This document shows positions 25,375 through 62,200 of a DNA stretch of 64,000 bases, one piece after another. Each line of letters begins with the position of its first letter. The stretch's first letter is position 1. The stretch lies in IMG/VR virus record IMGVR_UViG_3300017766_004544, positions 18,230 through 82,229 of that record; one strand, given 5' to 3'. Made by a program: the position numbers and the translations under genes. The notes under the pieces were generated by a model. The model made no database searches. It saw nothing but the letters and a program-made list of their open reading frames with translations, and was not told the origin of the DNA. This stretch comes from a virus (taxonomy: Duplodnaviria > Caudoviricetes).

Positions 25375-26099
25375 TCAGTACACGAACGAGTAGGCCACGG
25401 TCACGAAGTCCTTGTTCAGGATCTCGAAACCGGCGAAGAGCGACCAAATCATGATGATAAAGCGACTGAAATCGTCGTTATTATTCAACAAGATCTGAGC
25501 GTTGTTGCCGCCGATGCCAACGCCCACGGCCTGAGGACCGAAGAACAGCATCGGAGCAGCGGTGGTCACGGCGCTGGTGATAGAGGCATCAGCGATCGTG
25601 ACCTGCAGGCTCTTCTCGGGTAGGTTGGTGCTCTCGAACCAACGGACGCCCTCAAAGAGGAAGCCCGAGGGCATCACGGCCTGGCCTGCCACGAAGCCGG
25701 CTTGACCGTAAGCAGGGCCCATGCCACGGAAGAAGCTGGCATTGGGGGCCAGTTCGGGCTGCATGGGGTTGACCATGCCATTGCCTGCATAACGAGCGAT
25801 CTCACGGAACGCATCGTTCTGACGCAGGTGCATCATTGCGGTGGGGTCCGCGATGCAGCGGTAGTACCCATCGGCGAAGGTGGGCACGTTGCGCTTACGC
25901 ATGTCCTTCACGACCTCGAGGAGGTCGGTCTTGACATCGAACTTGGCGGATTCGCCAGCTGCGTAGGTCAGGAAGGGGGCAGAAGCTGCCTTGGCCTTCT
26001 TCAGGGGGTAGAAGTAACCACCCTTGGTGCTGTCAGCTGCGCCATTGGCTTCAGCTTTGAAGAGTTCGTCGGCAAAAACCCGGTCACGCCAGCGCCTGT
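25375..26099 (-). CDS. Major capsid protein, exon 2
   Basis: Begins AC|AGG CGC TGG after the intron's terminal G and reads RRWRDRVFADELF... in frame into track ORF 25375..25911. Confidence 0.85.
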
Positions 26100-27296
26100 C
26101 ACTGCTGCCCCGAAGGGCCGCGAGGCTCTTTATCCTCGCGCTTGCTCTTTGTCATCGAGCAAGGTTAGACTATATCTTCACCATCCTTGAACTTCTGAAG
26201 ACCCCCTTGAACGCGTTGGCGCGCGAGGCGCTTGACGCGCTGACCGATTCACTCTCCGACAAGGAGATTGGCGAGCTCTATGGCCTGTCGAGGACGGCGG
26301 CCACCCATCATCGCAAAGCCGCTGGTGTGCGGTCGTTTGCTCAGAAGCACGGTCGACGCAGGTACGCCGACAGTTACGAGCGAAAACCTGGAGCCCAACG
26401 CGCCGTCAGCTATCGCCGCGAGATTCGCGAAGATTTCTTTCGCCAGATTGATACCCCCGAGAAGGCGTACTGGCTGGGCTTCCTTTCGGCCGATGGCTGG
26501 ATTGTCACCGAGAAAGGCGCCTTGAGGGGCGTTGGCCTTGCTCTGCATGAGAGAGATCAGGGCATCTTGGAGCAATACGCCCAAAGCGTTGGGTTCCCCG
26601 GCCCTCCCACTCGGGCTCGAGCAGGCTCACCGCTAATGCAGGTGAAGTTCACGAGTCCGGCCATGGCCGCGGATCTCGTGGCCCATGGGGTCACTCCCAG
26701 GAAATCTCGCACAATTACGTGGCCCGAGCTACAGAGTCGCCTACTCCGCCATTACGCCAGAGGCGTATTTGACGGCGATGGGTCAGTCGGGCGACGCCCG
26801 AATGGCTCTCTGGCAGCGCAGCTCACGACGGCAAGCGAGGCGTTCGCATATGGCTTCAAGTCGTGGGCCGACCCCGCCCTACCCCGGGAGACCTCCGTGG
26901 GTAAAGACAGGAATACCCACGTCTTGCGCTGGTACGCCGATAACGCCCTTGCTTTCGCCGGGCTCCTCTACGAGGGCACGACATCCGAGCGCTTGCGACT
27001 GGAGCGCAAGTACAGGGTCTTCTTCAGTTGACAAGGTGCAGGTGCGGGGCACTCGTGGGTCCGTTACCGAGTTTCCTCTCGGGACCTAGTCGTTGAACCT
27101 TCCGGCTTGTTGGCCGGATTGGCTGCTGATTACCCATGCGGCGTCAGGATTTTTAAGCGTTCACGATTGCCCTTCCGGGCTGCGTTGTAGCTCCTGAACC
27201 TATTCCGACCGCTGGCGTGATCGGGAAGGGCTTCCAGCAATTCACCCCGTGTTGCCCTAGGCGTTTCCGCCTAGGCGACCACAAGCCTTTCGGCCG
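26100..27296 (-). ncRNA. Group I self-splicing intron (1197 nt) in the major capsid gene
   Basis: P1 with U.G at the 5' splice site; IGS GCUUGUGGUC pairs both exons; P AAUUGCUGGAA, Q AAUCAGCAGCC, R GUUCAACGACUA, S AAGAUAUAGUCU; P9 hairpins; terminal G. Confidence 0.92.
26207..27031 (+). CDS. LAGLIDADG homing endonuclease, antisense within intron loop L8
   Basis: AYWLGFLSADGW and HYARGVFDGDGSV motifs, N-terminal HTH-like LSDKEIGELYGLSR; TTG start inferred. Confidence 0.85.
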   Translation: MNALAREALDALTDSLSDKEIGELYGLSRTAATHHRKAAGVRSFAQKHGRRRYADSYERKPGAQRAVSYRREIREDFFRQIDTPEKAYWLGFLSADGWIVTEKGALRGVGLALHERDQGILEQYAQSVGFPGPPTRARAGSPLMQVKFTSPAMAADLVAHGVTPRKSRTITWPELQSRLLRHYARGVFDGDGSVGRRPNGSLAAQLTTASEAFAYGFKSWADPALPRETSVGKDRNTHVLRWYADNALAFAGLLYEGTTSERLRLERKYRVFFS

Positions 27297-27714
27297 AGTC
27301 ATCCAGCAGAGTCAGCGAACCGATCGACTGGTGGAAAACATTCAGGTTGCCGGTGTCCAGCAGCAGGCGCTGGGCAGTCAGCAGGGTTTCCCGGGCCACC
27401 TTGAAGGTGGAGGGGGCGGAAGTATCGGTCGGATCAGCGGGGCCGGTGTACTCCTTGAGAGTCACCAGCACCTTATCCTTCACGATCGAGCGCGAAGATG
27501 CAGTGCCGAGGGTCTGATCAGCGGTACGCTCACGGCTGTCCTTGGTGCCAGGGGCACCCCAGAAGCGGTAGCGGTCAAGCTGAACAGTCTGGCCGGGTTG
27601 CTTGGCGAAGTCGTGCACAACCACGGGCTCGACCGCCATCTCCACGATGTACGAGGGATGGGGCCGATAGAGCTCGGCACCTAGCAGCTTCGGAAAGTCA
27701 TTGTCAATCCACAT
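27297..27714 (-). CDS. Major capsid protein, exon 1
   Basis: MWIDNDFPKLLGAELYRPHP...GQTVQLDRY...LTLLDD+T; 418 nt + 725 nt gives a 380-aa ORF; position and size fit an HK97-fold capsid. Confidence 0.85.
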
Positions 27715-27795
27715 GGGATGAAATGTCCGAGCGACAAGTGTGCGAGAAGGCACGCAAGGCGCCTCCTGGGGCTTACTATAAAACAGTCTCGTAGT

Positions 27796-28557
27796 GTGAA
27801 AAAGTTGGACGCCACAGACGTCCGGGGCCTGCTCAGCTTGTTGCTTGCTGATGGCAGTTTGGTGCCATATCGCAGTCCTGGAGGGGGATATATCCAGCTC
27901 ACGCTGACAGCCGGCGCAGCGGAGTCCGCGTTTCTCGAGGAGAAGGTCGCCGAATTCCGCCAATTTGTGCCGACGCAGGCGCAGATTGTTCACTACAAAA
28001 CCAAGCCGCGCGCCAACGGCCAGAGCACCTCGGTGCTGCGCTTTCGGGTGTCATCGACTCGCCTGCGCCCCGTCTACAACTTGCTCTACCCAACCGGGGA
28101 GCGTGAGATCAGCCAGACCGCACTCGACATGCTGGGCGCTCAAGCCGCTGCCTGGCTCTGGGCAGAAGGGGCACGGCTGCACCCAGAGGGCTACGTCGAT
28201 CTTGCCCGGGTCGGCAGGACCTTCGATGAGGCCCTGCGGGTCTGCCAGTGGATTGGAGTCTTGACCGGCGCGGAGGCAACGCTGGCCGATACCCACATCC
28301 AGCCTCGCCTGCGCTTCCAAAGGCGTGAGGCCAGCAAGATCCGCAAGGCCCTGCTGCCCTACGCACCGGCGAGTCGCATTCACTTATTCAAAGAGGAAGT
28401 CTGGGATGTCAGCCTCATTCGTAGCGCTCGCACTGAGCTACTGCTTGGGGAGGGGGACCCTTGGCCTCAAGGGGGCGAAGAAGCGGCCGTGGCTCGAGAT
28501 CAAACGCCGGGAGACGGACTTGACCTACCTGAACCACCAACTGCGCATGCTCCATAA
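27796..28557 (+). CDS. Free-standing LAGLIDADG-like protein
   Basis: VRGLLSLLLADGSL and LGAQAAAWLWAEG motifs; GTG start inferred. Confidence 0.7.
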   Translation: MKKLDATDVRGLLSLLLADGSLVPYRSPGGGYIQLTLTAGAAESAFLEEKVAEFRQFVPTQAQIVHYKTKPRANGQSTSVLRFRVSSTRLRPVYNLLYPTGEREISQTALDMLGAQAAAWLWAEGARLHPEGYVDLARVGRTFDEALRVCQWIGVLTGAEATLADTHIQPRLRFQRREASKIRKALLPYAPASRIHLFKEEVWDVSLIRSARTELLLGEGDPWPQGGEEAAVARDQTPGDGLDLPEPPTAHAP

Positions 28558-28966
28558 GGCGCATGACGGCAAGCTCGAAGCGGTCTCGGACATCGTCCAG
28601 GCCGAGGGCTTCTATGACGACCGGCGGATTCGCGTCCACAGCCCTGATCTGTACCGCGTCTACGACCTGCTCTTCTTCCGGGATGAACGCCGCCTGACGC
28701 CTGAGATTCTCCAGATCGCTGGCATGCAGGGTCTGGCTGCTCTGTGGTGCGATACCGGCACGGCCTCGCGCCGCAAGGTCGTTCTGCGGTCCTGGGCCAG
28801 CCTCGAGGAAACGCAGTATCTACGTGACTGGGTTGTGGGCTTGGGCTATCTGCCGTCGCTTGTGCAAAAGGGGCGCCTCGAGTTTCAGGGCATCTACGCC
28901 GATGACCTCATTCACGATCTCAGGCAGCTCATCCCCCGCTGCAAGCTGCCAACTCTGAGGCGTTAG
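28406..28966 (+). CDS. Second free-standing, degenerate LAGLIDADG-like protein
   Basis: ALSYCLGRGTL and QGLAALWCDTG motifs; overlaps the upstream gene by 152 nt. Confidence 0.6.
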   Translation: MSASFVALALSYCLGRGTLGLKGAKKRPWLEIKRRETDLTYLNHQLRMLHKAHDGKLEAVSDIVQAEGFYDDRRIRVHSPDLYRVYDLLFFRDERRLTPEILQIAGMQGLAALWCDTGTASRRKVVLRSWASLEETQYLRDWVVGLGYLPSLVQKGRLEFQGIYADDLIHDLRQLIPRCKLPTLRR

Positions 28967-31258: not shown

Positions 31259-32425
31259 TCAGTAATCCCAGATTGCAGAAGGCTTGACTCCGGCCCGTGC
31301 AAAGAACTTGCCATTATTGCGAGTATCGATGTGGATAAATCCACGCGGGCGACCATCGCCGTAACCACCGCTCCATCGCTGTACAAGCCATTCGTGGAAC
31401 TTCTGCAGTGATTCGCCAATGGGATAGATGTCTAAGGCCATCCCTTTGACGTGATAGCTGCCCGGCACTCCACCCACCTGACTATTGATTGGTTCAGGGC
31501 GGTACCCGCTGGTGATGCCCAGTGGGCCGGCCCACGCCGTGCGGATCGCATCGAACTGCTTGCAGACCTCGATGATCGCTTTCTCCTCCGCACTGCCGGC
31601 CTTCGGGGCCCGGCGAGCGTCGTACTGCAGAATCTCACCGACCGTGACGTACTTGCCAACCGGGCAGGCGAAATCACTCCAGTTGATCGCCCCCGAAGCC
31701 GCAGGGGCGGGCTTGGCCTGCTCCTCGAGCCAGTGCGGCGTGAACAGCACCCAGCGTTCGCCGGATCCATGCAGCGTCACCCATGCATGGCTGTCGCTTG
31801 GAATCTCATCCAGCTTGCTGACTGCCAGCAGTTCGCCTTTGGCGACAGTCTTCTTGCCAGCTTCTGACAAGTAGTGGCTGTCGATCGGGGCCTTCTTGAG
31901 CAGGGTGTCCTGCTGGGCGATGAACTTCATGGTGCCGTCATCCTCTCGTTGCCAGATCTCACCTTCGCGGTGGCGGCGATTAACCAGTCCAGGCAGTGTT
32001 CTACCCCCTGCCTTGACATAAAGGCTAAGAGCCTGAGGCATCTGCTGGTAACGCTCGGCCTTTGTCGCGCCTTCCTTCAGTACCCGCGTGATGGATTCAA
32101 ATCCTGCACTTCCGTAGAACTTGGCGCCCAGGTTCCAGGCAAAGCTCAGCAAGACAGACTGCCGCTGCGGGCCCAGTCGATCCCAGCCAGGGATGCACTC
32201 CATCGCTGGCACGAACTGTGTCTTCAGCAGTTCCTGAAGATGTGCCTTGCAGATTCGGTAGTCGCACTGGTCACCCATGCGCACGGGTTCCCCGTTCGGA
32301 TAACGGGTGAGTCCGGCGCAGATCGTTGGAATGCCGACGGGATCGAGATAGGCCTCGAGTTCGATCCCCTCAAATTCCTCGATCAGGCGAGTCGCTAAGC
32401 CCAGTGTCTGCGGGTGAATCGCCAT
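31259..32425 (-). CDS. Endolysin: GH24 lysozyme + M15 Zn peptidase
   Basis: EFEGIELEAYLDPVGIPTICAG (E-x8-D-x5-T); ITSGYRP...SYHVKGMALDI...GFIHID. Confidence 0.88.
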   Translation of the reverse strand: MAIHPQTLGLATRLIEEFEGIELEAYLDPVGIPTICAGLTRYPNGEPVRMGDQCDYRICKAHLQELLKTQFVPAMECIPGWDRLGPQRQSVLLSFAWNLGAKFYGSAGFESITRVLKEGATKAERYQQMPQALSLYVKAGGRTLPGLVNRRHREGEIWQREDDGTMKFIAQQDTLLKKAPIDSHYLSEAGKKTVAKGELLAVSKLDEIPSDSHAWVTLHGSGERWVLFTPHWLEEQAKPAPAASGAINWSDFACPVGKYVTVGEILQYDARRAPKAGSAEEKAIIEVCKQFDAIRTAWAGPLGITSGYRPEPINSQVGGVPGSYHVKGMALDIYPIGESLQKFHEWLVQRWSGGYGDGRPRGFIHIDTRNNGKFFARAGVKPSAIWDY

Positions 32426-33034: not shown

Positions 33035-34033
33035 TCAGCCTTCAGATACCAGCACCTTGCTGCGCAGAGCCTCGGGAGTGGCTTGGCTCAGCATCTGCCA
33101 GGCGGCCGCAGGGTTGCGCTCGCTCAGGGCAGAGAAGGTGGCCCAGAAGTCATCGCCACCGCCATTGCTGGCCTGCACGTCAGGAGCGGGCATCTCCATC
33201 TGAGGGCGCTGATAGGTCGCAGGGGCGGGAGCGAAGCGGCGCTCATTGGCGGCGACTTCGGCGGCCAGGCGATCCTGGGGCAGCTCGGTGGGGTAGGGGC
33301 CCTGAGGACCGAAGAACTCGTTGACGTACTCAGCGAGGATCTCGGGGTTGGTCAGCAGCGTGTGATACGCCGCATTGTCCTCAGCCGCAGCCTCGATCAC
33401 GGTGTGCGAGTTCTGCAGTTGACCGTGGATGGTCTGCAGTTGGCTCAGCGCCTGGGCAGTCTGCTGGGCCTGGGCGAGCAGGGCATCCTCGACCACGCAG
33501 GCGTAGCGATTCAGCAGGGCAGGGGCTTCAGCACCGAAGTGCTGCAGAACCTCAAGACTTTCGCTGCTGACGCTTTGCAGATACTCGTCGCTCGCGGCTG
33601 CGCTCGGCGCGCTGCTGTAGCTCGGAGCCTGTGCCGGAATCGCCTGGGAATAGGCCGCTGTTTGTGGGTACGCTGAGGTCAGCGGCGCCGTAACGGAGGG
33701 AGCCGCCTGGTAGCTCACCGGTGCCTGCAGGTAAGCCGCCTGGGAAGGGGCTGCCTGTTGGGTCGGAGCCGAGGAGTACCCCTGGGACTGGGATTGAGGC
33801 GTCGCGCTCAAGCTGGCGAGCAGCCCCTGGTACGCCGCCTGCCAGGGATTCGCCTGGGGCACCGAAACCGGAGCTTCCGGGGAGTAAGCCGGAGCTTGCG
33901 GTTGCGCCGTCGGGTACGAAGCTGGGGCCGCCTGCTGGATCGATGGGGAGGCCACGGTCGGCGCGGCCACGCTGGATGGGATCGAGGGCTGCGGGGTCGC
34001 TACTGCCGTCGCCATCGCTGTACTGTCCTGCAT
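33035..34033 (-). CDS. Putative capsid scaffolding protein
   Basis: Follows the portal; P/A/S/Q-rich disordered N-half and helical C-half. Confidence 0.6.
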   Translation of the reverse strand: MQDSTAMATAVATPQPSIPSSVAAPTVASPSIQQAAPASYPTAQPQAPAYSPEAPVSVPQANPWQAAYQGLLASLSATPQSQSQGYSSAPTQQAAPSQAAYLQAPVSYQAAPSVTAPLTSAYPQTAAYSQAIPAQAPSYSSAPSAAASDEYLQSVSSESLEVLQHFGAEAPALLNRYACVVEDALLAQAQQTAQALSQLQTIHGQLQNSHTVIEAAAEDNAAYHTLLTNPEILAEYVNEFFGPQGPYPTELPQDRLAAEVAANERRFAPAPATYQRPQMEMPAPDVQASNGGGDDFWATFSALSERNPAAAWQMLSQATPEALRSKVLVSEG

Positions 34034-35771
34034 AGGTCAGTTCTCTCTTAAGGAATTCGAGAGCTCGATAGACATAGGGCGTCAGATCGAGCTTGGGGTC
34101 CGCCAGCAGGGGGAGATCCGGAGCCTGCGGATGCGGGGTCTGTCGCATGTTTTGAATCAGCGACAGGAAGGTTCCAATGCTTTGCTGCGTGGCTTGAGCC
34201 ATTCGGAATGGATAGCCACTGAGCATTGCACTGCGTTCTTCGTCGGTTTTATCCGGGAAGAGGTACCTGAGGGCCTCGATGCTGTTGACACCGAGCTCCT
34301 GCAGGTTTCGCACAACAATGCTTGAGTTCAGTATATCTTCTGTGGAGTCCTCGAAGACGGGGCCGAGCCAGCGCCAATCAATCTTGCGATCGCCATCGGG
34401 GATCAAGCCAACAACACCCGGCGGTAGTTGACGAGCTTGAACTGCTTCCCCGATCTGCGCCTCCAAGGCTTCCTCGAACTGCCGGTAAGCATCGCGGAAT
34501 GCGGCAACGGCTTCCTGGTATTGCTGCGCGTCCGGGAACTCTTCCCGCATGGGAACTGGTGGGCGCTCTAGGCCGATTGCCGCGGCAAAGGATTCCCGGA
34601 AGATCTTCTCCTCGTTAAAGAGCACGAGTGAGAGCAGTTTGCACAGCCCGTAGGTGAGCAGACCCCGGCACTTCCTCGATGCCGTTGTCGCAGCTCGGCC
34701 GTAGAGGGACTTGACTTCGTATGCCGTGGCGCCAGAGCTGATGCCGAGCTCATCGACGCCGCCCATGGCATTGCGCAGTTCCTCGCGGTACTGACGGGCG
34801 TAGAGGTTCTGGTCGCCGGAGACCGCATCGGGCGTGATGTAGGCCACGCGGTCCGTGGCTTCGATATTGGCGATGATCCGCGGGACCTTGACGCCACCGC
34901 CACCGCCGGCTCCCATCGGGGAACTCAGGCGTGTCGAGGGGCGATTCGCCGCATAGAAGCCAGCCTGTGAGCTGATGGTCGGGCGGAACTCCTCTCCATC
35001 ACCAGACTCGATCAGATCCTGCTTGGGACGGCTCGAGACCAGCGTGGGGTTGCCGTAGAAGGTGATATTGGCGCGGATGTTCTTGATCAGATCGTCGTGC
35101 GTGACGATGTGGTCGCTCAGCCAATCAAACTCGCCGCTGGCATCCATGCCAGTGGAGCGCATGTTGTTGAACGACTCAACGGCCGGGATGAAGCCCAGGC
35201 TGTTGCTCAGTGTGCGCGTTGAGTTGGGCGCGTAGTTCAGCGTCGTGATGCCCGCATCAAAGCTGGGCTTCTCGTTCGTGATCGACTCCTTGATGGTGTC
35301 GCGTCGAACCTGGAGCTTGACGTAACGGAGGGATCCGCCATCACCACCCGCGATAGCCGCCATGGACCCCAGGCCGTCGCGCACCGTGAAGCTGTAGATC
35401 AGCTCTACCTCCTCGAGCTGGCCAGCCGCGTCGTAGTAGGCGCGGTAGTTCTCCTTGCTGAACCACATCAGCCGGTAGGTGTCGCCGACCGGACGGAAGT
35501 ACCACAGACCCTTCCCGTCCAGCAGGAAGTCATCGATGATGCCCTCAAGCCGGGCGTCGATCTCGTTCTCTTCGATCAGCGCTGCCAGGAAGCTCTTACG
35601 AAAACCGAAGGTGTCCTGCGCTGGGTAGAACTCCAGTCCCTGGCGCAGCATGAACAACCGCATCTGCGAGAGATGCGAGTTGACCACCATCGTGTCGACG
35701 CCAGCCGTGCCATCACGCTTGCGCGCGGCCTCCAGAATGCGGCGAAAACGCTCGGTTTTGGGTTGGCTCAT
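33552..35771 (-). CDS. Putative portal protein
   Basis: Directly downstream of TerL, about 580-aa globular part plus a 160-aa tail overlapping the scaffold gene. Confidence 0.7.
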   Translation of the reverse strand: MSQPKTERFRRILEAARKRDGTAGVDTMVVNSHLSQMRLFMLRQGLEFYPAQDTFGFRKSFLAALIEENEIDARLEGIIDDFLLDGKGLWYFRPVGDTYRLMWFSKENYRAYYDAAGQLEEVELIYSFTVRDGLGSMAAIAGGDGGSLRYVKLQVRRDTIKESITNEKPSFDAGITTLNYAPNSTRTLSNSLGFIPAVESFNNMRSTGMDASGEFDWLSDHIVTHDDLIKNIRANITFYGNPTLVSSRPKQDLIESGDGEEFRPTISSQAGFYAANRPSTRLSSPMGAGGGGGVKVPRIIANIEATDRVAYITPDAVSGDQNLYARQYREELRNAMGGVDELGISSGATAYEVKSLYGRAATTASRKCRGLLTYGLCKLLSLVLFNEEKIFRESFAAAIGLERPPVPMREEFPDAQQYQEAVAAFRDAYRQFEEALEAQIGEAVQARQLPPGVVGLIPDGDRKIDWRWLGPVFEDSTEDILNSSIVVRNLQELGVNSIEALRYLFPDKTDEERSAMLSGYPFRMAQATQQSIGTFLSLIQNMRQTPHPQAPDLPLLADPKLDLTPYVYRALEFLKRELTYAGQYSDGDGSSDPAALDPIQRGRADRGLPIDPAGGPSFVPDGATASSGLLPGSSGFGAPGESLAGGVPGAARQLERDASIPVPGVLLGSDPTGSPFPGGLPAGTGELPGGSLRYGAADLSVPTNSGLFPGDSGTGSELQQRAERSRERRVSAKRQQRKS

Positions 35772-35780
35772 GGGTCTAGT

Positions 35781-37325
35781 TTAGGTCCATTCGATTTGCG
35801 CAGCTCCGCGCTTCATCAGCCCCTGCACCACGATATTGAGGCTGTCGGCGCAGTCGTCATGGGGGCTATGGCCGAAGTTCGTGATCTCATCGATCATGTA
35901 GCTGAAATCGCGGTACTTGTTGAAGATGATCTTCTTCGCCTGGAACAGGCCGAGGATGCCGCGTAGTCGTGCGAGCTTGTCGCCGCGGAAGCCCTTCACA
36001 GGCGAGATGTGCAGGTTGTACAGCTGCCATTCGTTGAACAGCACGCGCTTGAGGTCCCCCTCGAAACTCTTCTGATAGGCCACGACCTCAGGCCAGATCG
36101 TCACCGCTGAGGCTGTCGGGAAGTACTGGCCGTCATCGTTGACCGCCAGCAGGTTCCACTCCATCAACAGCTCGCACAGCGCCTCGACCTTTTCGATGTT
36201 GCCCATCGAGCGCATGCGCCTGTAATCGATGATGTAGCACTTGTCGTCGACCCGCCCGGCCAGCGTGAACACGGTCCAGTCGTTCCGCTCGCTCATGCCC
36301 GCGGAGAGGTCGATCCCGACACCGACCATGTCATAGGTATCCGGCACCTCGCCCCGTACAAACAGCTCCGGACTGACGCCCAACTCCGTCGAGCGCACCG
36401 GCTGGTTCAGGTACTGGTACGAGAACGAGATCCGGTCGTCATTCTGCAGCTTGAGCAGGTACTTGGTGGACCACATCTCAGGCCAGTAGGACTTGGGGCG
36501 GCCGTCCTCGTCGTAGCGCAGTGCCGACTGGACAACCGTCTTCCAGCCCTTCTTCTCGGTGTAGATGGTCGAGAACAGGTCGTCAAAGTGGAAACGCGTG
36601 CCCAAGGCGATGGCCCGGGCACCCTGGAACATGGTCGGCACAATCACCGCATTCCAGTTGTTCTCCATCTCCCGGCGGATGTCCGGGTTGGCGATGGATG
36701 CTGCACTCTTGATCGCGTCATCCACCACGATCAGCGAGCTCCGCTTGGAGGTGATCGTTCCCTTCAGGCCAGCGCAGGCGACCGTGAAGGCGTCCTCCCC
36801 TCGGACGTCGATGTCAGCAAAGTCCCAGTCGATCCCCCACAGTTCGTCCGAGGTCCTGGTCTTGGACAGCCGCACGCACGGAAAGATCTCCTGGTAGGTC
36901 TTGGAGAGGATCAGGTTCTTGATGGCCGCACTCTTGTTGCGCGCGACGTCCACGTTGTACGACACGTACAGGATGCGCAGCAGCTTCTTGGCCAAGGCGT
37001 GCCTGCCGATCAGCCAGCCCAGCAGCAGACCCAGCACCGTGCTTTTGGCGCTGCCTCTGGGGCTGAGTAGGCAGGTATTGGGGCCCGCGATGTCGAGCAG
37101 ATGCTCATTGCTGTGCCCGGTCAGGAAGGCCCTATGCCATTCCTTCATGTGCCGGGCGGGGGGCTTGCCCATCAGCTCACAGAAGTAGCCGAAGTTCTCC
37201 CGCGCCTTAAGGACGTGCGGCGGGAGGACGGGCTCCTCGACGACCACCTCTGGCTGCTTCCTGATGCTTTGAGCCGCCTTGAGCGCACTGCGTTTGCGCG
37301 CCAGGGCAATCGATACGCCTGCCAT
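35781..37325 (-). CDS. terL: Terminase large subunit
   Basis: PRGSAKST (Walker A), LIVVDD (Walker B), GTRFH, GIDL and HDDCADS nuclease motifs. Confidence 0.92.
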   Translation of the reverse strand: MAGVSIALARKRSALKAAQSIRKQPEVVVEEPVLPPHVLKARENFGYFCELMGKPPARHMKEWHRAFLTGHSNEHLLDIAGPNTCLLSPRGSAKSTVLGLLLGWLIGRHALAKKLLRILYVSYNVDVARNKSAAIKNLILSKTYQEIFPCVRLSKTRTSDELWGIDWDFADIDVRGEDAFTVACAGLKGTITSKRSSLIVVDDAIKSAASIANPDIRREMENNWNAVIVPTMFQGARAIALGTRFHFDDLFSTIYTEKKGWKTVVQSALRYDEDGRPKSYWPEMWSTKYLLKLQNDDRISFSYQYLNQPVRSTELGVSPELFVRGEVPDTYDMVGVGIDLSAGMSERNDWTVFTLAGRVDDKCYIIDYRRMRSMGNIEKVEALCELLMEWNLLAVNDDGQYFPTASAVTIWPEVVAYQKSFEGDLKRVLFNEWQLYNLHISPVKGFRGDKLARLRGILGLFQAKKIIFNKYRDFSYMIDEITNFGHSPHDDCADSLNIVVQGLMKRGAAQIEWT

Positions 37326-60407: not shown

Positions 60408-61189
60408 CCCTGTCAGATCAACTGCTCCGGTTCGGGCATGGCAACGCCAAGCTGCCCAACACCACCATGACGTTTGCCTTGCCCGCTGGCTTCACCTGCC
60501 CGGGCGCTCTGCTCTGCCTGTCCAAGGCTGACCCGGTGACCGGCAGGATCACCGATGGCGAGCACACTCTGTTTCGCTGCTCCGCCGCCAGCGAGGAAAC
60601 CCGGCCTTCGGTCCGCAAGGCGCGCCACCACAACTGGTCACTGCTGCGCGGTCTCAACACTGGCGCCATGGCCGATCTCCTGGATCTGTCCCTACGCGCC
60701 CAGGTCCGCAGCTACACCGAACGCGTCCGCTGGTTCACCTCCGGCGATTGCTACAACGACCAGCTGCGTGATGCCCTGATCGAGACCGCCCAACGCCATA
60801 GCGGCCTGCAGTTCTACCTGTACAGCAAGAACCTGCCGCTCTGGCTGGATCGCGGCGTACTGCGCCCCTTGCCCAGCAACATGACCATGACCGCCTCCTG
60901 GGGCGGGCGCTACGACTTCCTCCTGGCAGACGGTCTGTTTCCCAGGACGGCAAGGGTTGTCAATACGCAAGAAGAGGCATACGCTCTGGGCCTGGCCGTC
61001 GACTTCACCGACGCGCTGGCCTACCAATCAATACCAACTCATTTCGCACACCTAGTTCATGGCACCCAGCCCAAGCACTCCGCAGCCGGTCAAGCCATCC
61101 AGCAGCGCCGCGCCCAAGGCCAGTTCTCCGGCTACTCACGCAGCGGCCATTCCCATGCTCGTCCACTACCCGTCCCTGCCGGTCAATGA
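60404..61189 (+). CDS. GP88-like protein
   Basis: GNAKL...FALPAGFTCPGALLC...VRWFTSGD...FYLYSK...PSNMTMTASWGG. Confidence 0.7.
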   Translation: MTLSDQLLRFGHGNAKLPNTTMTFALPAGFTCPGALLCLSKADPVTGRITDGEHTLFRCSAASEETRPSVRKARHHNWSLLRGLNTGAMADLLDLSLRAQVRSYTERVRWFTSGDCYNDQLRDALIETAQRHSGLQFYLYSKNLPLWLDRGVLRPLPSNMTMTASWGGRYDFLLADGLFPRTARVVNTQEEAYALGLAVDFTDALAYQSIPTHFAHLVHGTQPKHSAAGQAIQQRRAQGQFSGYSRSGHSHARPLPVPAGQ

Positions 61190-61547
61190 CGTCTACTTCC
61201 CCCTCCACAACGGGGCCCAACTTCGTGACCTCATCAAGACCTGCGCAGACAATGACATCGAGTACAGGCTGCTCTACGACCACGGCCGCAAGTTCCACTA
61301 CACCCCGGACTGCCGTCGCACTGCCCGCTGACCTCAAGATTCAGCGCAGCGAACTCCTGGCCTTCGGGGCGCTTCTGCCCCATGAGGCCGGTGGGCTGCT
61401 GCTGGGTTCCTACTCGCCCAGCCGGATTCTCAATCTCCGCACGGGCCGCCAGTGGTCAGCCTGGCAGTGGCAGGAAGTCTTGCGTTCCCATTACGAGCAG
61501 ATGACCGGACCATCCGCTACCTCGGATCCAGGCGCCACCCCAGCTCA

Positions 61548-61727
61548 ATGAACCCTGACGACCTCGATGTCGAGTACTACATCGACTCCCACGGGCACGA
61601 CTGCTATCGCATCTGTATCCCAGATGGGCCATGCTCGATCGTCTCATCCGCTCACCTAATTGACGAGCGCAAGGCACAGCTTCTCCGCATGTACCCGCAA
61701 TGCCTCCCATCGTCACCTTCGGACTGA
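61548..61727 (+). CDS. Hypothetical protein
   Basis: ATGA coupling to the upstream small ORF. Confidence 0.45.
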   Translation: MNPDDLDVEYYIDSHGHDCYRICIPDGPCSIVSSAHLIDERKAQLLRMYPQCLPSSPSD

Positions 61728-61936
61728 CCTGGCTACTCGGCATCCTTGCCGTCACGATCTACCTCACCCAGTTCTCATGAAACGCTCTGCCTTCTTTGCC
61801 CTGGCGCTGGGCATCACCCTTGGCGCGTTGGCACGCTGGGCAACCACCCCCAACCGCGCCACTCAGCCCCGCTAACAAATCACCCACTGCCACTCGCAGT
61901 AACCGCAACAACGCATCAGCAGACTCAACCGCACCA

Positions 61937-62200
61937 ATGGTTAGCTATCTCACCAGGAAGATGTCTGACAAAGACTTCTATCTGTCTCAGGCATCGAGGC
62001 CCAGGCCTGCGACTGCCTACAGCAAGTACCGAGGCGTCAGCAAGGGCAACAAGGGCTTGTATCGAGCCACGCTCACATACAAGGGACGGCGCTACTACCT
62101 CGGCAACCATGCCAGTGAGATCGAAGCAGCTCACGCCTACAACAAGGCAGCACTCGCAATCATTGGCGAGCACGCCATCATCAATAACATCCCCGAATGA
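61937..62200 (+). CDS. Stand-alone AP2 DNA-binding domain protein
   Basis: SKYRGVSK...YRA...RRYYLG...EIEAAHAYNKAA. Confidence 0.85.
   Translation: MVSYLTRKMSDKDFYLSQASRPRPATAYSKYRGVSKGNKGLYRATLTYKGRRYYLGNHASEIEAAHAYNKAALAIIGEHAIINNIPE

Follow-up and report, generated by a model that had tools for sequence, protein, structure and literature searches.

Evidence for a mobile group I intron with an antisense LAGLIDADG gene in the major capsid gene of an S-EIV1-like cyanophage

Introduction

In the virus genome IMGVR_UViG_3300017766_004544 from the IMG/VR database, which belongs to an S-EIV1-like cyanophage, the major capsid gene is interrupted by a 1197-nt insert that carries an endonuclease gene on its opposite strand. 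This raises the question as to what the insert is, how an intact capsid protein could be made across it, and whether the phage has any use for it. The source record is an 82,229-bp complete virus genome with terminal repeats; the stretch analysed here, called the window, is 64,000 nt long and corresponds to bases 18230-82229 of that record, and positions below are those of the window unless stated otherwise. A preliminary description of the window had proposed that a group I intron splits the gene. That proposal is now strongly supported by exact intron-less alleles, by matches to Rfam and to a family profile, by covariation and by the match of the intron's guide to its exon. We conclude that the insert is very probably a mobile group I intron of the subgroup IA type in the major capsid gene. 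The coordinates of the features discussed are collected in Table 1.

Table 1 Features of the capsid locus, with the strand on which each lies

Feature	Position	Strand	Remarks
Capsid exon 1	27297..27714	minus	139 codons and the first base of Tyr140; final base U
Capsid exon 2	25375..26099	minus	last two bases of Tyr140, 240 codons, stop
Group I intron	26100..27296	minus	1197 nt; starts CGGCCGAAAGGCUUGUGGUC, ends ...GCAGCAGUG; terminal G at 26100
In-frame UAG (TAG in DNA)	27271..27273	minus	8 codons into the intron (SAERLVVA, then stop), within the P2 5' strand
P1	27276..27301	minus	exon UGACU (27301-27297) with guide GGUCG (27280-27276); U.G at splice site
P1 inner stem	27295-27284	minus	GGCC/GGCU, GAAA loop
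P10 guide GCUUGU	27281..27286	minus	6 bp with ACAGGC at the start of exon 2 (26099-26094)
P2 hairpin	27256..27275	minus	8 bp, GAAA loop; covaries in family
P3	27249-27244 / 27050-27045	minus	CGGGGU/GCCCCG; 6/6 paired; encloses P4-P6 and P7.1 (27045..27249)
P4	27239-27234 / 27129-27124	minus	UGCUGG/UCAGCA; covaries in family
P5	27231-27228 / 27135-27132	minus	covaries in family
P5 extension	27227-27136	minus	92 nt
P6/P6a hairpin	27097..27123	minus	
P7 5' strand GACUA	27087..27091	minus	R element GUUCAACGACUA; pairs with UAGUC 26172-26168 (S element AAGAUAUAGUC)
P7.1 two-part hairpin	27058..27086	minus	between P7 and P3'; 4/5 outer pairs covary
P8 long interrupted stem	26179..27044	minus	27044-27015 with 26204-26179; 17/17 listed pairs form; endonuclease gene in the loop
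P9	26163-26141	minus	covaries in family
P9.1	26140-26119	minus	covaries in family
P9.2	26118-26107	minus	UUCG loop
LAGLIDADG homing endonuclease gene	26207..27031	plus (antisense to intron)	274 codons from TTG 26207; helix-turn-helix-like N-terminus
Sigma-70-like site TTGTCA-18-TATCTT	26149..26178	plus	upstream of the endonuclease gene; complement of P9 loop and J8/7
Co-conversion-like tract	26062..26098	minus	12 synonymous differences from L003, exon 2 +2 to +38
Portal-like virion protein	33552-35771	minus	head module, upstream of capsid gene
Large terminase	35781-37325	minus	head module, upstream of capsid gene

Intron-less alleles place the splice junction to the base

The first capsid exon ends in ...CTG GAT GAC T and the second begins with AC AGG CGC TGG. 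Joined in silico, they form a 1143-nt coding sequence (CDS) of 380 aa that reads LLDD-Y-RRW over the junction and has zero internal stops. The predicted junction is GATGACT joined to ACAGGCGC in DNA (GAUGACU joined to ACAGGCGC in RNA), and the words CTGCTGGATGACTACAGGCGCTGG and GATGACTCGGCCGAAAGG would be diagnostic of spliced and unspliced molecules, respectively. The preliminary description had given this junction and this 380-aa frame, both of which are exact, and had correctly noted that translation of the unspliced message would stop 8 codons into the intron.

Intron-less alleles, which that description had suggested looking for, turned out to be common. S-EIV1, a Synechococcus phage and the sole cultured relative in the phage collection, has an uninterrupted capsid frame of 383 aa that reads LTLLDDYRRWRDRVF / ...SLTLLDDYRRWRDRVF... 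over the predicted junction. A search of IMG/VR with exon 1 returned at least 596 stretches, and in the best 80 loci, which were examined, the capsid gene is uninterrupted in 77. An intron at the insertion site of the window (site A) is missing in 78 of these 80 closest relatives and present in two; overall it occurs in four other IMG/VR contigs, from different samples. The closest intron-less allele is that of contig L003: its capsid protein is 99.2% identical to that of the window, and in the DNA a clean 1197-nt gap is flanked by 90-92% identity on either side, with window positions 27297 and 26094 aligning to L003 positions 4418 and 4424. The colinearity with L003, together with the other intron-less alleles, therefore makes the junction exact to the base. 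The site-A introns form one clade (support 1.0), and introns at the same site group together across genomes.

The interrupted gene itself matches major head protein profiles. Exon 1 is 80.6% identical to S-EIV1 and 100% identical to L003 at the amino acid level, and exon 2 matches phrog_1357 (major head protein) at 2e-16. An intron-less homologue matches the same profile at 1.6e-20 over residues 34-377, so that both exons are covered, and the look-alikes of the capsid protein among its Atlas neighbours have Phage_capsid_3/4. The gene thus combines a profile match along its whole length with a position in a head-morphogenesis module, downstream of the large terminase and portal-like genes (Table 1). 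Sequence searches of the protein against PDB and Pfam gave no match.

Two observations concern the surroundings and the annotation of this gene. Between the portal-scaffold region and the capsid gene, window positions 31259-32425 (minus strand) encode a 388-aa protein with endolysin-type and peptidase-type PHROG matches, which may be a virion-associated cell-wall hydrolase. In the GenBank record of S-EIV1 (KJ410740.1; L001:3926-5152, corresponding to 60784-62010), the capsid locus is annotated as a hypothetical minus-strand CDS at 60784-61545 and a short plus-strand CDS at 61540-62010; a single plus-strand open reading frame (ORF) of 383 aa at 60859-62010, homologous to the entire capsid protein, covers both annotated CDSs. 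The major capsid gene is therefore probably mis-annotated in that record.

The insert has the anatomy of a group I ribozyme

All helices named in the preliminary description are present and fully complementary: P1, P10, P3, P4, P7, a P7.1-like insert and three P9 hairpins, together with the terminal G. The P5 extension was also recognised, at about 110 nt; it is there, with a length of 92 nt. At the 5' splice site, U27297 pairs in P1 with the G at intron position 17, and at the other end the terminal G precedes an exon whose first bases form P10 with the guide, as is usual for group I introns. The P4-P6 and P3-P7-P8 domains follow each other in canonical order (in intron numbering, P3 is 48-53/247-252, P4 58-63/168-173 and P5 66-69/162-165), with R and S elements that fit the consensus. 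P7 forms a pseudoknot with P3 and is invariant in 18/18 family members; the outer pairs of P3 covary (CG, UA, GC, AU). The architecture, with P7.1 between P7 and P3', suggests membership of subgroup IA.

How well does the insert match known group I introns? At the gathering cut-off of Rfam model RF00028 (Intron_gpI; 50 bits), the window has no match. At an E-value threshold, RF00028 matches 27301-27039 (P1 to P3') with 38.9 bits and E 5e-8, and a second part, 26180-26143 (J8/7, P7' and P9), with 12.7 bits; the halves total 51.6 bits with the 860-nt P8 insert between them, and the whole-genome E is 6e-10. The covariance-model hit that the preliminary description had named as a check thus exists, below the 50-bit cut-off, because the P8 insert splits the match. 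As a yardstick, the capsid intron of mycobacteriophage LittleE, which is proven to splice, scores 30.7 bits with the same model. Related introns lie in the same gene on contigs L007, L032, L052, L129, L174 and L181, and 13 related introns pass the Rfam cut-off with 50.7-101.5 bits.

These relatives also provide a comparison within the family. An alignment of 11 endonuclease-free relatives, with the window not included, was turned into a hidden Markov model (HMM; an nhmmer profile, hence of sequence only), and against the 82-kb genome this model matched the intron alone, with 124 and 36 bits (E 6.5e-38 and 4.5e-11). RNAalifold recovers P2, P3, P4, P5, P6, P6a, P7.1, P8, P9 and P9.1 from the same 11 members, with compensatory changes in 40/58 pairs. 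When P7 is added as a pseudoknot, covariation is seen in 41/63 pairs and pairing in 95.5% of cells, compared with 73.7% after shuffling; sliding the partner strand by 1-3 columns lowers pairing to 30-46%. In 18/18 introns, at no fewer than 12 sites, the guide near the 5' end pairs with the intron's own exon end, and the U.G pair and the terminal G are there without exception. P10 shows a compensatory change as well: the window has ACAGGC/GCUUGU, and the L052 intron at the same site has ACCGGC/GCUGGU.

Cores of this kind are found in other viruses too. A 17-nt word of the R element, GAAGGTTCAACGACTAG, occurs in more than 115 IMG/VR contigs (L083-L197), several giant-virus bins (GVMAG) included; those with capsid homology were the ones examined. 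Group I introns with such a core are therefore widespread in very different viruses. In phages of Streptococcus, Escherichia and Bacillus, introns share short DNA matches with the P6-P7 core.

The P8 loop holds an antisense endonuclease gene under purifying selection

The endonuclease ORF, at intron positions 266-1090, takes up about 70% of the insert; it fills the P8 loop, and its own ends make up the P8 stem. A single chain contains two LAGLIDADG motifs, LSADG and FDGDG (YWLGFLSADGWI and YARGVFDGDGSV). The ORF matches Pfam LAGLIDADG_3 in two stretches (5.8e-8, 33.3 bits, cut-off 22.5) and phrog_4645 (endonuclease) at 3e-41; a sequence search against PDB gave no match. Compared with its ortholog in L032, the ORF has 149 nucleotide differences, distributed 29/20/100 over the three codon positions, with 85 synonymous and 40 non-synonymous codons, and the ribozyme parts of the two introns are 94% identical. 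From the codon-position pattern we conclude that this is a real gene under purifying selection. An intein was considered and rejected, given the in-frame stops and an ORF on the other strand. On the sense strand of the intron, a stop-free frame mirroring the endonuclease ORF is absent, as every frame contains 7-8 stops.

As the gene lies on the strand opposite to the capsid message, it needs its own plus-strand transcript. Upstream of it is a sigma-70-like site (Table 1); two such sites were found, with 0.7 expected. L032 and L007 have a like arrangement (TTGYCA, 16-18 nt, TATCTY), whose two boxes are complementary to the P9 loop (GAUGRCAAA) and to J8/7 (AAGAUA). The heptamer TTAGACT, considered as a shared promoter element, occurs 4 times in the window; base composition predicts about 3, so that it is not enriched. 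From sequence, the ribozyme core may thus double as the promoter of the endonuclease gene. The P9 loop and J8/7 elements are conserved in ORF-less introns too, so their conservation alone proves nothing for a promoter.

With these data, one can ask whether the insert still functions at all. That it is a dead insert that no longer splices (a broken gene in a defective genome) or an assembly chimera is the least probable of the readings that we considered. The record is a metagenome assembly and the window has no Rfam match at the gathering score, as such a reading would have it, but the genome is complete and has terminal repeats, the two exons are intact, their protein being 99% identical to that of intron-less alleles, and every core helix is intact. 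Moreover, the four other contigs, from different samples, have this intron at this site, and the frame of its endonuclease is under purifying selection.

Signs of mobility

The 3' exon carries a possible trace of how the intron arrived. Compared with L003, exon 2 has 12 mismatches in its first 45 nt, all of them synonymous and confined to +2 to +38, against a mismatch rate of 5.3% elsewhere and a single mismatch in the 100 nt upstream (binomial P ~3e-6). This asymmetric footprint looks like the co-conversion tract of a homing event. Taken together, the sporadic distribution, the homing endonuclease gene and the co-conversion-like footprint are, at the level of sequence, the signature of a selfish mobile element.

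The following mechanism would account for these features. The capsid pre-mRNA would be transcribed from the minus strand, and the guide GGUCG would pair with the exon bases UGACU to form P1 with its U.G wobble. A free guanosine bound in P7 would attack after U27297; P10 (GCUUGU/ACAGGC) would then align exon 2, and the terminal G (26100) would be exchanged. Ligation of the exons would restore ...LLDD-Y-RRW... and with it the 380-aa capsid protein, and the in-frame UAG at 8 codons would bar ribosomes from the ribozyme core. The antisense endonuclease would be expressed via its own plus-strand transcript, perhaps from the sigma-70-like site. In a mixed infection, capsid alleles without the intron would be its targets, with cleavage near the DD/YRRW site, and repair off the intron-bearing genome would copy the intron and a short stretch of the 3' exon.

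A different view of the insert is that it serves the phage: the preliminary description had proposed that capsid output depends on ribozyme folding, so that folding or splicing efficiency would time or dose capsid production. Trivially, capsid output does pass through splicing, and it is conceivable that an antisense transcript over the P8 loop modulates the pre-mRNA. This proposal is unsupported, however, and we consider a regulatory role very improbable. The intron is missing at its site in all but two of the 80 closest relatives, L003 with its near-identical protein and colinear flanks among them, and since such near-identical phages exist without the intron, it is dispensable to the phage. 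Both the co-conversion-like tract and the gene for a homing endonuclease indicate selfish spread, and Rfam scans of the window found no sensor or riboswitch-like element.

Several points weigh against a mobile, self-splicing intron in a capsid gene. The lack of an Rfam match at the gathering threshold has been mentioned. An AlphaFold2 model of the intron-less capsid protein, built from a shallow alignment, has a mean predicted local distance difference test (pLDDT) score of 35.9, too low to confirm an HK97-type fold. The start codon of the endonuclease is uncertain: where the window has TTG at 26207, the ortholog in L032 has TTA, while an alternative CTG at 26195 is conserved. The putative promoter amounts to a consensus match. 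The footprint in exon 2 could instead stem from selection on P10 pairing or from chance recombination. Finally, self-splicing and endonuclease activity are inferred, from DNA rather than from RNA or protein.

A swarm of related introns in the same capsid gene

The capsid genes of some relatives contain several introns each. Contig L181 (3648-6310) has six, separating exons of 12, 95, 150, 175, 219, 69 and 429 nt; L129 (3000-5280) has four; L052 (4001-6990) has three, with a 23-nt exon between two of them; and L007 (4001-6600) has two. Spliced in silico, each of these multi-intron relatives yields an intact capsid protein of 380-382 aa. Taken together, the introns of these relatives occupy at least 13 insertion sites in the one gene. 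On L174 (4505-5426), the intron at capsid codon 48 has its endonuclease gene, of the LAGLIDADG_2 type (Pfam 3e-14), on the sense strand, between P7 and P3'. Set against the antisense gene in P8 of the window, this indicates that endonuclease genes within one intron family can occupy different loops and either strand.

A more far-reaching reading of these data, which we consider somewhat more probable than not and hold with less confidence than the identity of the window's intron itself, is that the S-EIV1-like capsid gene is an exceptional hot spot for group I introns of one radiating family. At least 13 sites in 380 codons are occupied, by up to six introns per gene; the guide of each intron has been retargeted to its own site, and two placements of the endonuclease gene occur, one antisense within P8 and the other sense and between P7 and P3', with the core of the antisense type possibly doubling as a promoter.

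LAGLIDADG-like sequences also lie next to the capsid gene of the window. A LAGLIDADG_2-like ORF at 27718-28557 (plus strand; Pfam 5e-5) overlaps another at 28325-28966 (0.015). This region (27718-28966) begins 4 nt from the capsid start codon, is divergent from the capsid gene and has 71-90% DNA identity in intron-less relatives. The ORF at 27718-28557 is 27% identical (E 3e-11) to the enzyme encoded in the L174 intron. The ORFs of this region may be free-standing or domesticated kin of the capsid-intron endonucleases.

Such proteins raise the question of whether splicing needs a protein helper. Candidates would be the LAGLIDADG protein of the intron itself, as a maturase, one of the neighbouring LAGLIDADG-like proteins (27718-28966), and a host factor. 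In organelles, maturases of the LAGLIDADG family are well known. The two ORFs just upstream of the capsid gene, both partly degenerate, are conserved in intron-less relatives too, and one of them is kin to an enzyme encoded in a relative's capsid intron. Nevertheless, we regard protein-dependent splicing as improbable, if slightly less so than a regulatory role. The core is complete and canonical, with stabilising P2, P5 extension, P7.1, P9.1 and P9.2; most family members are ORF-less and yet interrupt an essential gene; and genomes that lack introns altogether have the neighbouring LAGLIDADG-like genes too. Splicing by the ribozyme itself is the reading that we prefer.

Discussion

The closest parallel to the window's intron is in LittleE, a Cluster J mycobacteriophage in which splicing of a capsid intron was proven by reverse-transcription PCR and N-terminal protein sequencing (Pope et al. 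2013, PMC3706429; JF937101 genes 13 and 14). The lactococcal phage Tuc2009 also has a capsid-gene intron, as cited in PMC3706429. In LittleE as in the window, a group I-type intron with a U before it and a G at its end interrupts the major capsid gene, a LAGLIDADG gene lies on the bottom (antisense) strand, close relatives have the intron only sporadically, and Rfam scores it below the cut-off. The host phylum is a different one, though, and the capsid genes are unrelated. The LittleE intron measures 820 nt and encodes a 177-aa single-motif enzyme, compared with 1197 nt and a 274-aa two-motif enzyme with an N-terminal extension in the window. The two endonucleases have no detectable similarity beyond the motif (E 0.07), and kinship between them was rejected. 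Finally, LittleE has one capsid intron, whereas relatives of the window phage have up to six in the same gene.

The classical phage IA introns (T4 td with I-TevI, nrdB, SPO1 DNA polymerase, and Twort orf142 with three introns) share with the window's intron the P1-P10 helices, P7.1 and the R/S core, as well as an early in-frame stop, an endonuclease ORF looped out from a peripheral helix, sporadic occurrence and homing with co-conversion (PMC2988022 and established knowledge). Their ORFs differ in being sense, mostly of the GIY-YIG or HNH type and mostly in genes of DNA metabolism; the window has an antisense LAGLIDADG gene in a late structural gene. An endonuclease gene on the opposite strand in a peripheral helix, in need of its own promoter, is also known from nuclear ribosomal DNA introns with antisense His-Cys box genes such as L2066; those introns, in turn, are eukaryotic, interrupt ribosomal RNA genes and express their His-Cys box enzymes by RNA polymerase II with spliceosomal introns (PMC9548176).

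In cyanophages, S-PM2 has a psbA intron beside the free-standing endonuclease gene F-CphI. The LAGLIDADG-like ORFs next to the capsid gene of the window, likewise free-standing, are reminiscent of this pairing of a free-standing endonuclease with an intron-bearing gene. Pf-WMP3 has a DNA polymerase intron with I-PfoP3I (PMC3428280). Both are group I introns in protein-coding cyanophage genes, like that of the window; they differ in their target genes (psbA and DNA polymerase) and in having HNH or free-standing enzymes, which are not antisense.

A capsid intron with an antisense LAGLIDADG gene is thus already known, with LittleE as the direct precedent. The preliminary description, which missed the antisense gene, overrated the novelty of the intron in light of LittleE and Tuc2009. 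What is new is the swarm, with up to six introns and at least 13 sites. In the literature searched, we found no report of this swarm or of any phage gene with more than three group I introns; likewise, we found no report there of introns in S-EIV1-like capsid genes, which does not prove that there is none.

Such introns have practical consequences. Gene callers split the intron-bearing capsid gene or overlook it. Because cyanophages are commonly counted and classified by this gene, introns that go unrecognised will break primers as well as the mapping of reads and the clustering of proteins. This annotation problem concerns a lineage with at least 596 IMG/VR contigs. Intron endonucleases can mediate competition of co-infecting phages, as shown for PhiPA3 (PMC11620839). 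For a late structural gene with very high expression to tolerate between one and six ribozymes, splicing in the cyanobacterial hosts must be very efficient. The family constitutes a natural series of closely related ribozymes with varied guides, with and without endonuclease genes in either orientation, and is useful for studying both how introns spread to new sites and how antisense homing genes are expressed.

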